Positions 1,736-34,140 of a stretch of 64,000 nucleotides of DNA are shown here, piece by piece. The position numbers and the translations under genes were made by a program. The notes below the pieces were generated by a model that worked only from the letters and a program-made list of their open reading frames with translations, had not been told where the DNA came from and made no database searches. Source of the DNA: Octopus vulgaris (Eukaryota); NCBI GenBank assembly GCA_951406725.2, contig OX597823.1:2728001-2792000 (forward strand), in the 5' to 3' direction. Every line of letters begins with the position of its first letter. The first letter of the stretch is position 1.

Positions 1736-1836
1736 TTTGAAGGGATTTCTTCACACAATCTTATTGATTTGGGGTTACAACGATTAAGACGTTGATATCC
1801 AAACCACGTGTCTTCCTTCCAATGTTTAAAAGAATC
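1736..1836 (-). CDS. Lipoxygenase, exon 5 ([33 protein letters not shown]); gene continues left of window
   Basis: catacag|GAT acceptor and TCAAA|gtaagt donor; 101 nt, phase 0 in / phase 2 out; peptide matches the lipoxygenase W-x-x-D-x-x-F-G-x-Q-x-L-N-G-x-N-P motif. Confidence 0.92.
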
Positions 1837-1929
1837 CTGTATGTATGACAAAGACAACAAAACTAAACATTGATTTCTAATATAGAAACAAGATTTCCAG
1901 TTTTATTTGTAATTGGGAGAAGGTTACAT

Positions 1930-2112
1930 GCTGGCAGGATCGTTAGGGTAGCACACCGGACAAAATACTTAGTGGCATTTATTCCGGCTTTACATTCGGA
2001 GGTCATCTTTTTGTGGTCGATAAAGTAAGTTCCAGTCACTCACTGGAGTCGATGAAATCGACTATCTCCCTCCCCACAACATTTCAAGACTTGTGCCTAT
2101 CGTAAAGAGGAT
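1930..2112 (+). mobile_element. Degenerate tRNA-derived SINE (same family as 32963-33177); a more decayed inverted copy follows at ~2130-2290
   Basis: ctggcag..cgttag..caccgg..aaatacttag..ggtcgataaa..aagt.ccag..ctgg.gtcgat..ttgtgccta aligns by eye to the intact copy. Confidence 0.65.
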
Positions 2113-2413
2113 TTGTAGTAGGAAAGGTATAGTTAATTAAGACCCACTACCAATACATAATTTGCATTTCATTATCGACCCCCAAAGAATCGAAAGCAAT
2201 CGTGACTTTGGTAGTAATCGGAACGAGACCATAAATAAGTCTTATGAAATACCATAAAGAATTTTTGTACGACGCACCAGAATTTGTTGTCTATCGACTT
2301 AACTTTTGTTTGTCCGTGTAAACCAGAACTCACTGTTCTGAAACAAAAAAATGTAACTAAACTTACATTAGAGAATTTAGTACTAGAAACAAGATACTTG
2401 AGGGAAATTGTGC

Positions 2414-2837
2414 TTCCCCGCCTCCTCCTATGCCTTCCTTATATATAAATATATATTTATATATAATATATATATATATATATATATATGTATATATATA
2501 TATATATATATATATATATATATATATATATATATATATATATATATATATATATATGTATGTATATATATATACATATGTGTGTGTGTGTGTGTGTAAA
2601 TAATAGTAATGGCATTTTTATATAAGCTTAAAGCTCGTGGCGATCATCGTACAATGACTAAGGAAAATAGTCCAATAAAGTGGCGTATAAGCCCTCGACA
2701 GAATAAAGAAGGCTTTCCAATCGGTGTCATCGCACGGTAAGCGTTAAGCTTATATAAGAATACCATCATTATTATTATTTAAAGGATTGTAAACTCGGCG
2801 GCGTATAAAAAAAAACATTCGCACCGAAAGCATATAT
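2414..2837 (+). repeat. Unclassified repeat (27-nt CT motif + TA/GT microsatellite + ~235-nt core with internal inverted arms); left arm of an inverted pair
   Basis: Near-identical reverse complement at 3668-4030; diverged third copy at 28229-28510. Confidence 0.85.
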
Positions 2838-3667
2838 ATATATCTGATGAATTCCGTTGCTTCGTACAACCAAATTTCCTTAAAAAAAAAACTGATTGGT
2901 CAATTCTAGACAATTAAAATCACATACTCCGGCTGCCGTGCTGTAAGATTGAATTAGGTTCAGCCTGATAGAAAAGGAAGTCTCCTTGCTACACAACTCT
3001 ACCTTCAGTTTATCATTTATATTCTGACCCTTAAAATGTACTCTTTGGGTTAGATATAAATATTGTTATTGAAATGTATTGTTTGTTTTCAGATTCATTT
3101 CAACTCTGATAGAGCAAACGTTTTGAGCGAAAGCATTCCAGCCTTGTTCAGGTTGTCTTTTCTTCAGATTTAGTGCGTTTAAGTATGTATTAAACCCAAT
3201 TTTTTAAGACGGTACGCATGACGTATGGAAGATTTAGCTATTACTTTTAATAGATCAAGCAACTGTATACAGCATTTGTTTTTTTAGTTGATCCATCGTC
3301 CTCTGATCAACAATCACCCTCCTAACCAGGCTACCGTCTGCGGCCTTACCTTCATTTTCGTTATAGGTATACATAATCATGTGATCTCGAGTGCTGTATA
3401 TCTGAAATGAAATTGGATGGTGGGAATGTCTTTGATCATAGGTTTAGTTTGTTGGGTAGATCTATAGCAAATGATAACTTTAGCCTATTTTGAATTTCTT
3501 GAGTTTCATATATAATTAGCCCTTGTTGTCATTTAGTTCTATACTAATCGCCATTGAGCAAACAGAGTATCAGAAGCGTCCATCATATATATATATATAT
3601 ATATATATATATATATATATATATATATATATATATATATATATATATATATATATATATATATATA

Positions 3668-4030
3668 TATATGCTTTCGGTGCGAATGTGTTTTTTATAC
3701 GCCGCCGAGTTTACAATCCTTTAAATAATAATAATGATGGTATTCTTATATAAGCTTAACGCTTACCGTGCGATGACACCGATTGGAAAGCCTTCTTTAT
3801 TCTGTCGAGGGCTTATACGCCACTTTATTGGACTATTTTCCTTAGTCATTGCACGATGATCGCCATGAGCTTTAAGCTTATATAAAAATGCCATTACTAT
3901 TATTTACACACACACACACACACACACACACACAAAAATATATATATATATATATATATATATATATATATATACATACATACATACATACATATATATA
4001 AGGAAGGAAGGCATAGGAGGAGGCGGGGAA
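3668..4030 (-). repeat. Right arm of the inverted pair with 2414-2837
   Basis: Core 3672-3906 is the reverse complement of 2598-2832 with about 3 differences; the flanking aaggcataggaggaggcggggaa is also mirrored. Confidence 0.85.
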
Positions 4031-4468
4031 TCATGACCTTCGAACCTTGAGCCTCACAGCACAGAGGCAATGACAAGAGACCGAGACCTTTGGAGAGATG
4101 CTGTGATTGTTGGACAGCATGCCATGCTTGAAAAGATGAGTCAAGTAAAATCAAAATCAAATTCAAAATGGAAATTGTACTTGTGGCTGATGTCAGCTCC
4201 ACCTGACAGGCACCCGTGCTGGTGGCACGTAATAAGCACCATTCAAGCGTAGCCTGTGCTGCCTGACTGGCTCCTGTGCCGGAGGAATGTAAAAGCACCC
4301 TCTACATTCTCGGAGTGGTTGGCGTTAGGATGGGCATCCAGCTGTAGAAACCTTGCCAGATCAGATTGGAGCCTGGTGCAGCTACCTGGCTTGCCAGTCC
4401 CCAATCAAACCGTCCAACCCATGCCAGCATGGAAAACGGACGTTAAACGATGATGGTGATGATCATGA
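4031..4468 (+). mobile_element. 3' end of an RTE-like LINE with (GAT)n tail
   Basis: Remnant peptide EAMTRDRDLWRDAV (RTE C-terminal 'DR..WR..V' motif), followed by a 3'UTR ending gacgttaaacgatgatggtgatgat. Confidence 0.6.
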
Positions 4469-31944: not shown

Positions 31945-32706
31945 TACACACACACACACATACACACATACACACATATACATGCATACATGCATACATG
32001 CATACATACATACATACATGCATACATGCATACATACATACATACATACACACATACGTACATACATGCATACACACATACATACATACATACATACATA
32101 CATACACACACACATACATACATGCACACATACATACATACATACACACACATACATACATACATACATACATACACACATACATACATACATACATGAG
32201 CACATACATACATACATACACACATACATACATACATACATACATACACACACACATACATACATGCACACATACATACATACATACATACATACACACA
32301 CATATACATACATACATACACACATACATACATACATGCATACATACAGACATACATACATGCATACATACATACATACATATATACATACATACATGCA
32401 TACATACACACATACATACATACATGCGTACATACATACATACATTGATACATACACACATACATACATACACACATGCACACATACATACATACATACA
32501 TACACACATACATACATACATACATACATACATACATACATACATAAATGCACACATACATACATACACACATACATACATACTTACATACATGCATACA
32601 TACACCAATACATACATGCATACATACATATATACATACATACATACATACATACATACATACATACATACATACATACATACATACATACATACATACA
32701 TACATA
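31945..32706. repeat. ~760-bp compound (CATA)n/(CA)n microsatellite
   Basis: Direct reading; source of the spurious MYVC/HTYI ORFs. Confidence 0.97.
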
Positions 32707-32709
32707 ATC

Positions 32710-33945
32710 TCGGCTCTTTAGGGAAAGCTGTAAATATCTAGGTTATACTTCCCACACAAGGAAGTATTGATGCCATGTGAGGCTCGTATTGTGACACCGA
32801 AGCATCAGTTACAGTAGATGAAAGTGATCCGTGACCATAAGATTTGAGACCATGAAATCAATAACATGATTAGAATTGCTAATGAACTTGAGGAGAGCTA
32901 TGAATTAAGGACATTAGTAAAATCTATTTATCAGAAAAGCAAAATGAAAGAATGGACATATTCGTTTTTACTCTAGGCACAAGGCCCGAAATTTTGAGGG
33001 AGGGAGGGCCAATCGATTAGACCGACCCCACTACGCAACTGGTACTTAATTTATCGACCCCGAAAGGATGAAAGGCAAAGTCAACCTCGGCGGAATTCGA
33101 ACTCACAACGTAACGCAGACGAAATACCGCTAAGCATTTCGCCCGGCGTGCTAACGTTCCTGCCAGCTCGCCGCCTTAAGAATGGATATATTTACTGAGA
33201 AGGTAGTACATTTGTATTTGGCACGTAAAACACAAACCATAGAAAGGATTGATCATGTCAAAAGCTCGGTATGGTGTACCGACAAGTTTATGACATCTCA
33301 CTTTGAAGGCTGCTTCCATTGTAATTCAAGAACAAAAGATCCCCACCAAGTATCTACTGAGTAAAGGGCGGAAAGCATTGACAGACAATAAATGTGAGCT
33401 GTGCAAAACCAAGACTGAAGACATCAACCACATTATTGTCAACTGTGAGAGAATGTCTTCTTATGCGGCATGATATGATGGAGAGAAAAATCTGGAAGAA
33501 GATAAGAAAAGAAAACACCCACAGACGAAATTGACTATATTAAGGTGGATGGGTGAAAAGAATATTAGTGGAACTTATAAATTCTAACAGCCACCAACTT
33601 ACAATACAATCAACCAGATATTGTCGCGTGAGACCATAAAGAAAAGATATGTTCTGTTGTAGAAATCAACTGCACCCTGGACACCGATGTGGTTAGAAAA
33701 ACACAAGAGAAAGAGGACATCTATGGATCATAGATAAAGAATTTGCAAATATAGTACCCAATACAGACTTTTAGCTTCATGCTCATTATTATTGTAATAA
33801 CAGGATACACACCAACCCATCTGGAGCAAAGCATGGCTGAACTTGAGATCTCGGGGAGAGAGCGTAAATCCTTACTTCACATCCTACAAATGATCACGAC
33901 GTGTGAAACTAAATGAAATTTGCAAAATCCTTCTTAAGATTTAAC
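32710..33945 (+). mobile_element. Highly degenerate R4/Dong-type 3' half (related fragment at ~30760-31030), interrupted by a SINE
   Basis: Remnants TSHFEG..IQEQ.IPTKYL, DNKCELCK..EDINHII, NQPDIV and VEINC. Confidence 0.65.
32963..33177 (-). mobile_element. Intact tRNA-derived SINE with 15-bp target-site duplication
   Basis: GGCGGCGAGCTGGCAG..GAGTTCGAATTCC..CCTTTCATCCTTTCGGGGTCGATAAATTAAGTACCAG; TSD aagaatggacatatt (32948-32962) / aagaatggatatatt (33178-33192). Confidence 0.9.
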
Positions 33946-34060
33946 AGATGACGAGCAAAACAAGATGCTTTCCGTTATTAAGAGGGTGGCCGGTCAAAAC
34001 TTAAAAAGGGTGAAACAAAACATACATCCGTACACACAAACGCAAACGAAACAAACTTAC

Positions 34061-34106
34061 CTTCTGAGTTGCTGAACCACAACGAATTGCGAAGCTGTCT
34101 GCAAAT
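34061..34106 (-). other. Probable non-coding first exon (5'UTR) of the lipoxygenase gene
   Basis: Consensus AAG|gtaagt donor at 34060; no ATG; initiator-like GCATTT about 30 nt downstream of a TATA box; splicing to exon 2 gives GAAGAAATGG (purine -3, G +4). The link across the 17 kb intron is inferred. Confidence 0.6.
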
Positions 34107-34130
34107 GCGCTCAAGATGTAAAGCGCACGA

Positions 34131-34140
34131 CTTTTATATA
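34131..34140 (-). promoter_or_regulatory. TATA box (TATATAAAAG)
   Basis: Consensus TATA at about -32 from the Inr-like site and upstream of a consensus splice donor, in a short unique island between repeats. Confidence 0.6.

Follow-up and report, generated by a model that had tools for sequence, protein, structure and literature searches.

The N-terminal PLAT domain is regarded as standard in animal and plant lipoxygenases (LOXs), where it serves membrane and calcium targeting and allosteric control, and to our knowledge the effects of its absence are known mainly from laboratory truncations. We describe here a lipoxygenase gene that begins in a 64,000-nucleotide stretch of Octopus vulgaris DNA (GenBank assembly GCA_951406725.2, contig OX597823.1, positions 2,728,001 to 2,792,000; hereafter the window) and that appears to lack this domain. 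The gene lies on the minus strand, extends 41 kb beyond the window's low end and is one of four tandem copies on its contig; it is called copy A below, and positions with the prefix C10 are contig positions. Our reading is that it is probably an intact lipoxygenase gene of 15 coding exons and 560 codons with a non-coding leader, that it has no PLAT domain, likely because an ancestral exon was cut down to its tail, and that its product is likely a soluble protein consisting of the catalytic domain only. An earlier note on this DNA had proposed a naturally PLAT-less, possibly soluble animal lipoxygenase, and the naturally PLAT-less part of that proposal is supported by the results given here.

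Comparable in architecture are the engineered or proteolytic mini-lipoxygenases (soybean mini-15-LOX, N-terminally truncated forms of rabbit 15-LOX and human 12-LOX, and the ALOX12 construct 3d3l), which like the product of the octopus gene comprise the catalytic domain alone and begin at nearly the same place; 3d3l is the crystallised human ALOX12 catalytic domain, and residue 36 of the Octopus sinensis protein P0003 (below) aligns to residue 24 of its 541-residue chain. In the passages of PMC10889196 that deal with them, truncated mammalian 15- and 12-lipoxygenases bind membranes worse, most calcium sites are placed in PLAT, and soybean mini-LOX is described as less stable. Those mini-lipoxygenases are laboratory-made, whereas the octopus truncation is genome-encoded, inherited, present in four copies and transcribed. 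Lipoxygenases naturally without PLAT are described in parts of PMC7436259 and PMC10889196 from fungi (MoLOX, GgLOX) and bacteria (Pseudomonas aeruginosa LOX and a cyanobacterial mini-LOX). These differ from the octopus protein in belonging to other kingdoms, in having other N-terminal elements (extra helices) and in not being close to it in sequence, and the fungal enzymes are secreted, glycosylated and manganese-using. A search of literature listings and abstracts found no paper on PLAT-less cephalopod or molluscan lipoxygenases. Part of an octopus skin-mucus proteome report (PMC11431876) lists an "allene oxide synthase-lipoxygenase protein", with the gene not specified in that entry, and the octopus PLAT-less genes are already in the NCBI annotation as short "ALOX15B-like" models.

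The natural comparison within the genus is with the PLAT-bearing genes of the C20 cluster (C20:70.11-70.47 Mb) and their relatives, represented by P0009 of O. vulgaris (669 aa), P0006 of O. sinensis and P0007 and P0008 of O. bimaculoides, and annotated as "allene oxide synthase-lipoxygenase protein" or "5-lipoxygenase". Copy A is 59-64% identical to the C20-type proteins over the catalytic domain and shares with them the iron-ligand motifs, the first donor and a micro-exon. It differs in that the C20-type genes have a complete PLAT domain (PF01477 E=2e-18 for P0009), encoded in one exon with the linker that follows it, and mostly begin with MG, whereas copy A starts inside the former end of PLAT; the chromosome-scale contig on which copy A lies is also a different one, and by branch length its evolution is several times faster.

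The exons of copy A were joined by splice-aware chaining, with P0003 (525 aa) as the guide. Every junction of the 15 coding exons is GT-AG, the 560-codon frame is open and ends ...IPNSIAI-stop, and the joined 560-aa model is 93% identical to P0003. The window contains the first 4 of the 15 coding exons; the other 11 lie at C10:2727195 down to 2687209. Transcript data were the assembled contigs of four runs, X1-X3 from organism A (two studies) and X4 from organism B; the contig sets of X1-X3 are small (36-106 million letters), and contigs were placed on window positions 16500-27900. The parts of the gene are as follows.

Window 23033..23106, minus strand: exon 0, non-coding leader, minimum extent, from a contig joint in X1, X2 and X3; donor GT at 23032-23031
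Window 16969..23032, minus strand: intron between exon 0 and coding exon 1, 6064 bases, GT..AG
Window 16805..16968, minus strand: coding exon 1, ATG at 16966, 54 codons; X1-X3 contigs show 0 differences
Window 13282..13323, minus strand: micro-exon 2, 14 codons, LETLPRNEKDLIYT; flanked by AG and GT, in frame
Window 9115..9243, minus strand: coding exon 3 (MRIELDV...EPK), 43 codons
Window 1736..1836, minus strand: coding exon 4, peptide match, GT-AG, in frame
C10:2727195-2727063, minus strand: exon 5, chained model
C10:2724783-2724688, minus strand: exon 6, chained model
C10:2717926-2717830, minus strand: exon 7, chained model
C10:2710787-2710670, minus strand: exon 8, chained model
C10:2708856-2708764, minus strand: exon 9, chained model
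C10:2702936-2702876, minus strand: exon 10, chained model
C10:2699061-2698956, minus strand: exon 11, chained model
C10:2697537-2697455, minus strand: exon 12, chained model
C10:2694203-2694021, minus strand: exon 13, chained model
C10:2689316-2689153, minus strand: exon 14, chained model
C10:2687323-2687209, minus strand: exon 15, chained model

The four minus-strand peptides that the earlier note had joined (16966-16805, 13323-13282, 9243-9115 and 1836-1736) are all recovered here, with GT-AG joins and in frame, and the strong Kozak start it had seen is likewise found (cagAAATGG, with A at -3 and G at +4). Disruption of the downstream exons, which the note had named as the mark of a pseudogene, was not found: all of them are present in the open frame.

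By profile and motifs copy A is a member of the lipoxygenase family. Its exon 13 stretch C10:2694033-2694173 scores 30.1 bits against PF00305 (cut-off 23.6), and PF00305 is also found in P0001, the NCBI model of copy A, and in P0003 (E=4e-52); the profile result for copy A rests on these two proteins and exon 13. The best solved relatives are Gersemia 11R-LOX (3vf1) and human ALOX15B (4nre/7laf), at E ~1e-78. Of the iron ligands, whose His residues the earlier note had left to be checked in downstream exons, the histidines of both clusters and the C-terminal residue are present, and the Asn ligand is replaced by Asp (below). The first cluster, His-x4-His as defined in the relevant part of PMC6612559, reads HQSVVHLG|LTHMLMQ across exons 7 and 8 and aligns, through P0003, with yHQmitHllrcH of 11R-LOX and HealtHllhsH of ALOX15B. 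The His of the second cluster (His-x3-Asn/His/Ser) is found in SHAAV, and the C-terminal Ile, which binds iron through its carboxylate, is present in copy A (...IPNSIAI), while copy D and P0003 end in Val. Of the 82 columns without any variation across 24 PLAT-bearing lipoxygenases, 65 are kept and 6 are gapped, these lying in the missing PLAT part. The other 11 are changed, 5 of them in the relic head described below; leave-one-out controls lost 0-6 columns, so the losses in the catalytic part are within the control range. An apparent loss of an invariant Trp (to Leu, at residue 92) was rejected as an alignment shift, as the N-terminal alignment puts a Trp two residues away.

The canonical animal architecture, with its N-terminal PLAT/LH2 beta-sandwich (PF01477), is not found in this gene; what is found is a relic of about 17 residues from the last strands. 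Exon 1 encodes these residues, which are likely left from the last PLAT strands, and then the linker, EKDPCKAERINEMQKNRDLYKLKYVEGFPLK. The part that aligns with the post-PLAT linker of other lipoxygenases is preceded by a head of only 17-24 residues, in agreement with the short head of about 24 residues claimed in the earlier note. In Pfam searches P0003 and P0002 (the NCBI model of copy D) contain PF00305 only, and P0009 contains both PF01477 and PF00305. A whole-genome search with PF01477 gave 16 matches from 31 candidates, none of them on the gene's part of C10 and 6 of them in the C20 lipoxygenase cluster. We also used the six C20 first coding exons as local queries against C10:2648001-2872000 (224 kb, comprising copy A, copy B and both spacers), which extends the search well past the window, as the earlier note had proposed. 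In tblastn only their last ~36 residues, the linker part, matched, and they matched exon 1 (E=1.6e-6); the best hit to the PLAT parts had E=0.57. A profile built from the six C20 PLAT parts gave a best E of 1.3 over the 8914 frames of at least 15 aa on both strands of the 224 kb, and a Pfam scan of 110 of the 264 window frames of at least 70 aa called none as PLAT or lipoxygenase.

The 5' end of the transcript gives a second view of the same question. Runs X1-X3 contain all sampled words of exon 1, and one contig in each of them (3/3 organism-A runs) joins 16968 to 23033. This joint skips 6064 bases, is CT..AC on the plus strand and therefore GT..AG on the gene strand, and has 70-74 letters on its upstream side, which reads ...taggcTAAgaattttttttctggaacatacaagaatcaagatttatttgtttcatccacactcttctaccag|gtatgg. 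We took X1-X4 to be RNA by guess, and the spliced joint argues for this. The joint was not seen among the contigs of organism-B run X4 on window 16500-27900; X4 has depth over 16500-17642 (the exon and 700 bases upstream) and a 2-base skip at 16913-16916; the depth may come from DNA, from unspliced RNA or from an exon that is longer in organism B. Within the contig-covered letters of the leader a TAA (23099-23097) stands in the frame of the MDDL start, 67 bases from the donor, with no ATG between it and that of MDDL. The ATG of MDDL is thus the first start, and the 16968->23033 message leaves no way for upstream residues to be added to the lipoxygenase frame. The earlier note had named splicing of a PLAT-coding exon onto 16968 as the observation that would overturn it; the exon seen spliced there is this non-coding one. 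The genome contains four copies of the leader exon, one per paralogue and 98-100% identical. A TATATAA at 23187-23181, upstream of the leader, is only a lead, since the surrounding region is a TA microsatellite. The earlier note had placed the 5' exon farther upstream.

Window 34061-34140, minus strand: earlier candidate 5' exon, with TATAAAA upstream and a GTAAGT donor; no ATG

The sequence features of this candidate (the exon itself, its TATAAAA and its GTAAGT donor) are as described, but among the contigs placed on window 16500-27900 the only partner of 16968 seen was 23033; an alternative promoter near 34 kb would lie outside that range.

Exon 1 and the leader exon each occur four times in the genome, always on C10, and belong to four tandem genes.

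C10:2440376-2499181: copy D, open, 574 aa
C10:2592292-2641112: copy C, without exon 3, frame kept
C10:2687212-2744966: copy A (the gene under study), open, 560 aa
C10:2811827-2869276: copy B, 1-base insertion in exon 14

All 14 intron junctions are GT-AG in copies A, B and D, as are the 13 retained in copy C. The earlier note had left it open whether the gene was an isoform or a paralogue; since the four tandem copies share the same structure, it is a paralogue and not an isoform. In copy B the one-base insertion that shifts the frame of exon 14 (C10:2813906-2813937) could be a pseudogene lesion or an assembly error. In copy C no match to the 43 codons of exon 3 was found at C10:2629097-2637029, and the low-quality O. 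sinensis model P0004 is also without this part.

Comparison with the C20 genes suggests how the PLAT domain was lost. In these genes Met, the whole PLAT domain and the linker are encoded in one open frame, up to ...KLKYQEGSPAT. The end of exon 1 of copy A, ...KLKYVEGFPLK, aligns with that sequence, and the match continues across the donor GT; the micro-exon that follows is conserved as well (LETLPRNEKDLIYT compared with LESLPGDEEFS.. of PLAT-bearing octopod lipoxygenases). Exon 1 of copies C and D has 42 extra bases that encode IFRWLWPGSDVPID or IFSWLLPGSRHPID and align with the last PLAT strand, FPVFRWIRPSVHYSLYP; the relic there, IFRWLWPGS.., is the counterpart of FPVFRW. A longer head of about 112 extra residues is present in the O. 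sinensis model P0013, in which residues 41-130 match PLAT residues 35-125 in collinear order, with 27-31% identity. Against the C20 PLAT exons this head gives pairwise E=0.002-0.07 for 5 of the 6, and a local profile finds it at E=5e-5 as a single target; Pfam called no PLAT in P0013. Its segment IDTISIGDSIGNLVEIG lines up with MDDLMTSSHQGAAPNIG of copy A, so that the first 17 residues of copy A are likely a remnant of the last two PLAT strands. In O. vulgaris no counterpart of the P0013 head turned up, either by tblastn over 524 kb that include all four copies or in a whole-genome search with 69 of its residues that was run without a positive control. Residues 1-40 of P0013, ahead of the decayed PLAT, are low-complexity (SQPGLSQPGPSQPGLSQLGLSQL) and unmatched in the O. 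vulgaris region, and they may stem from faulty gene modelling. The mechanism that we propose is that an ancestral exon encoding PLAT plus linker was cut down to its tail: a new acceptor and a new ATG would have arisen within that exon, near PLAT residue 95, and its 5' part would have been lost.

A quick maximum-likelihood tree of 30 proteins, including five PLAT-less rows and rooted at the midpoint, places the PLAT-less genes in one clade (Shimodaira-Hasegawa-like approximate likelihood ratio support 100), sister to the Octopus PLAT-bearing clade. Outside both lie Argonauta and a further O. sinensis PLAT-bearing gene, then cephalopod-like transcripts, and then other molluscs, Lingula, amphioxus and Nematostella. 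Since the PLAT-less clade is nested among PLAT-bearing octopod lipoxygenases, the loss would be derived and would have happened once within octopods; its stem branch is long (0.48, compared with 0.075 for the sister clade). By these sequence comparisons PLAT loss is a recent, derived event within octopods that left relics, which goes beyond what the earlier note had envisaged. Among the matches listed, close PLAT-less relatives occur only in O. vulgaris, O. sinensis and O. bimaculoides. Among 120 listed proteins 21 have PF00305 without a PF01477 annotation, namely 7 Octopus models and 14 from other invertebrates. Other animal models without a PLAT annotation include P0093 and P0098 of Mercenaria (549 and 542 aa), P0037 of Sinanodonta (504 aa), and the X2 isoforms P0051 of Asterias and P0053 of Anneissia. 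The 14 non-Octopus models, many of them partial or predicted isoforms and all compared by annotation only, are just 38-45% identical and would for that reason be independent cases. The C20 cluster itself holds at least six PLAT-bearing lipoxygenase genes (L001-L004, L006 and L007) on both strands, and five of the six have N-termini of the form MG...S (MGLMQSS, MGLTQSK, MGLQQSR, MGVKQSR), which we take to resemble the N-myristoylation consensus.

Several observations weigh against the reading of copy A as an intact, working gene, and most of them would be expected if the family were dying, that is, if PLAT loss had disabled the enzyme, the four copies were transcribed pseudogenes or becoming so, and the frame of copy A were open by chance; we regard this as unlikely, yet as an explanation to be taken seriously. 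The ratio of nonsynonymous to synonymous substitution rates (dN/dS) among the four copies is 1.0-2.3, with 1.5-10.5 synonymous differences per pair, and the ratio of exon divergence to that of each exon's own flanking introns is 0.91-1.78. Exons that diverge as much as or more than their flanks offer no evidence that amino acids have been under purifying selection after the copies arose by duplication. (A whole-locus control in which exons seemed to evolve at twice the rate of introns was dropped, as local flanks shrink the excess to 0.9-1.8 fold.) The frame of copy B is shifted and copy C lacks an exon. Copies A and B have Asp (SHAAVDF) at the fifth iron-ligand position, where Asn (HAAVN) stands in copies C and D, the O. 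sinensis models and 24/24 PLAT-bearing relatives, and Ser in ALOX15B. The long stem of the clade points the same way. The NCBI models P0001, P0122, P0095 and P0002 (copies A, B, C and D) have 327, 189, 299 and 393 aa and all start MDDLMTSSHQ, but they skip the micro-exon and several other intact exons, including both iron-histidine exons; exons 6 and 8, together with the end of exon 7, are missing from P0001 as well as from P0095. Such skipping may be recurrent mis-splicing in real transcripts or a model artefact; the micro-exon is present in P0003. Finally, contig depth is low (6-8.5) in runs that are RNA only by guess, over exon 1, where copies A and B do not differ, the contigs fit the one as well as the other, and the junction evidence covers the first junction only. 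Against a dying family stands the count of nonsense changes: of the at least 99 substitutions found among the four copies none is of this kind, where 4.4 would be expected (P=0.011). Indels in exons are also far fewer than in the flanks (0-2 per pair, compared with 4.4-11.5 expected from 400-base flanks, P=0.0001-0.07), although this comparison is biased, as indels arise more readily in AT-rich introns. Nor would decay predict the GT-AG sequences at all 14 junctions of copies A, B and D and at the 13 kept in C, the 65 invariant columns kept, with losses in the catalytic part no greater than in controls, the complete 525-aa model in O. sinensis, or two of the four copies being fully open (560 and 574 aa).

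An open frame together with amino-acid change at or above the neutral rate fits either diversifying selection or very recent relaxation, as judged from the substitutions. The family could accordingly be a neofunctionalised one, fast-evolving and PLAT-less, in which diversifying selection would have favoured a changed chemistry (with the Asp ligand in two copies) or a role other than catalysis, in a setting that itself changes rapidly, for example defence or secretions. We think this improbable. It would account for a frame maintained at dN/dS of about 1 or more, for exon divergence that exceeds the flanks in 3 of 6 pairs (P<0.05), for amino-acid differences that cluster in exons 2-3, 9 and 14-15, and for the tandem array; however, with only 7-10 synonymous differences per pair the counts are too small to separate positive from relaxed selection, and gene conversion makes divergence patchy. 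Very improbable, in our judgement, is that a PLAT exon was missed, one that another promoter (near 34 kb or farther upstream) would supply by a phase 1 splice onto 16968, so that the PLAT-less message would be one isoform among others. The acceptor at 16968 is indeed phase 1 and could accept a coding exon, the 34-kb block described below is about 99% identical in four units, and P0013 has its extra N-terminal residues. But the 224 kb spanning copies A and B, with the spacer upstream of each, yielded no PLAT-like frame, the P0013 head is absent from the 524 kb and from the whole-genome search, PF01477 has no match on the gene's part of C10, the candidate exon at 34061-34140 has no ATG, and the PLAT-bearing relatives encode PLAT in the linker exon and not in a separate one. 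We thus keep to the reading of copy A as an intact PLAT-less gene, in a family that we infer to be still protein-coding but fast-evolving. Only as a tentative and doubtful extension would we add that PLAT was shed in steps, from a decayed half (one O. sinensis model) through the last strand (copies C and D) to none (A and B), with frames staying open while amino acids changed at or above the neutral rate, to give a young family restricted to this lineage, a natural mini-lipoxygenase that would be under diversifying selection and have an iron site remodelled by an Asp ligand in two copies.

The surroundings of the exons are rich in mobile elements, as the earlier note had remarked of the introns: long interspersed nuclear element (LINE) reverse-transcriptase and endonuclease fragments and mariner-type transposase fragments were found by Pfam in introns and flanks alike, and a GA microsatellite lies directly upstream of the exon 1 acceptor.

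Window 24360..26380, plus strand: LINE-type reverse-transcriptase fragments, upstream of exon 0; RVT_1 E=1e-14 and 3e-11; zf-RVT
Window 18087-18470: zf-RVT fragment (Pfam), inside the intron between exon 0 and exon 1
Window 10444..10956, minus strand: Transposase_1 (mariner-type DDE) fragment, inside intron 2; E=8.7e-10

Summed contig depth over window 19548-20309, in the first intron, is ~300 to 4600 in 4/4 runs, compared with 1-10 over the lipoxygenase exon, which points to a highly represented repeat inside that intron. A further block, at window 32720-35650 (at least 3 kb), lies upstream of each lipoxygenase copy and is ~99% identical across 4/4 repeat units. It has 0-3 variable columns per 100 in most bins, compared with gene bodies that are 96-98.5% identical; it includes the 34061-34140 exon and AGC/AGT microsatellites, and its other copies are at C10:2664843, 2520306 and 2886539. 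Concerted evolution or a shared regulatory element are both possible sources of this identity.

The N-terminus of the predicted protein, MDDLMTSSHQGAAPNIGPPPLTREKD, has by eye no hydrophobic stretch or signal peptide, and on that ground it would be cytosolic. By analogy with the truncated enzymes, a protein without PLAT would bind membranes weakly and independently of calcium, and would act on free fatty acids. The value of the locus is limited by selection on the copies that looks relaxed or diversifying and by an activity that is predicted from sequence. The public annotation can be corrected, since the four O. vulgaris models (189-393 aa) leave out exons for which the genome has undamaged sequence. 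The octopus copies show intermediate stages of domain loss within one exon, and a genome-encoded, transcribed and duplicated PLAT-less animal lipoxygenase would, if this is true, be a natural experiment on the absence of PLAT.

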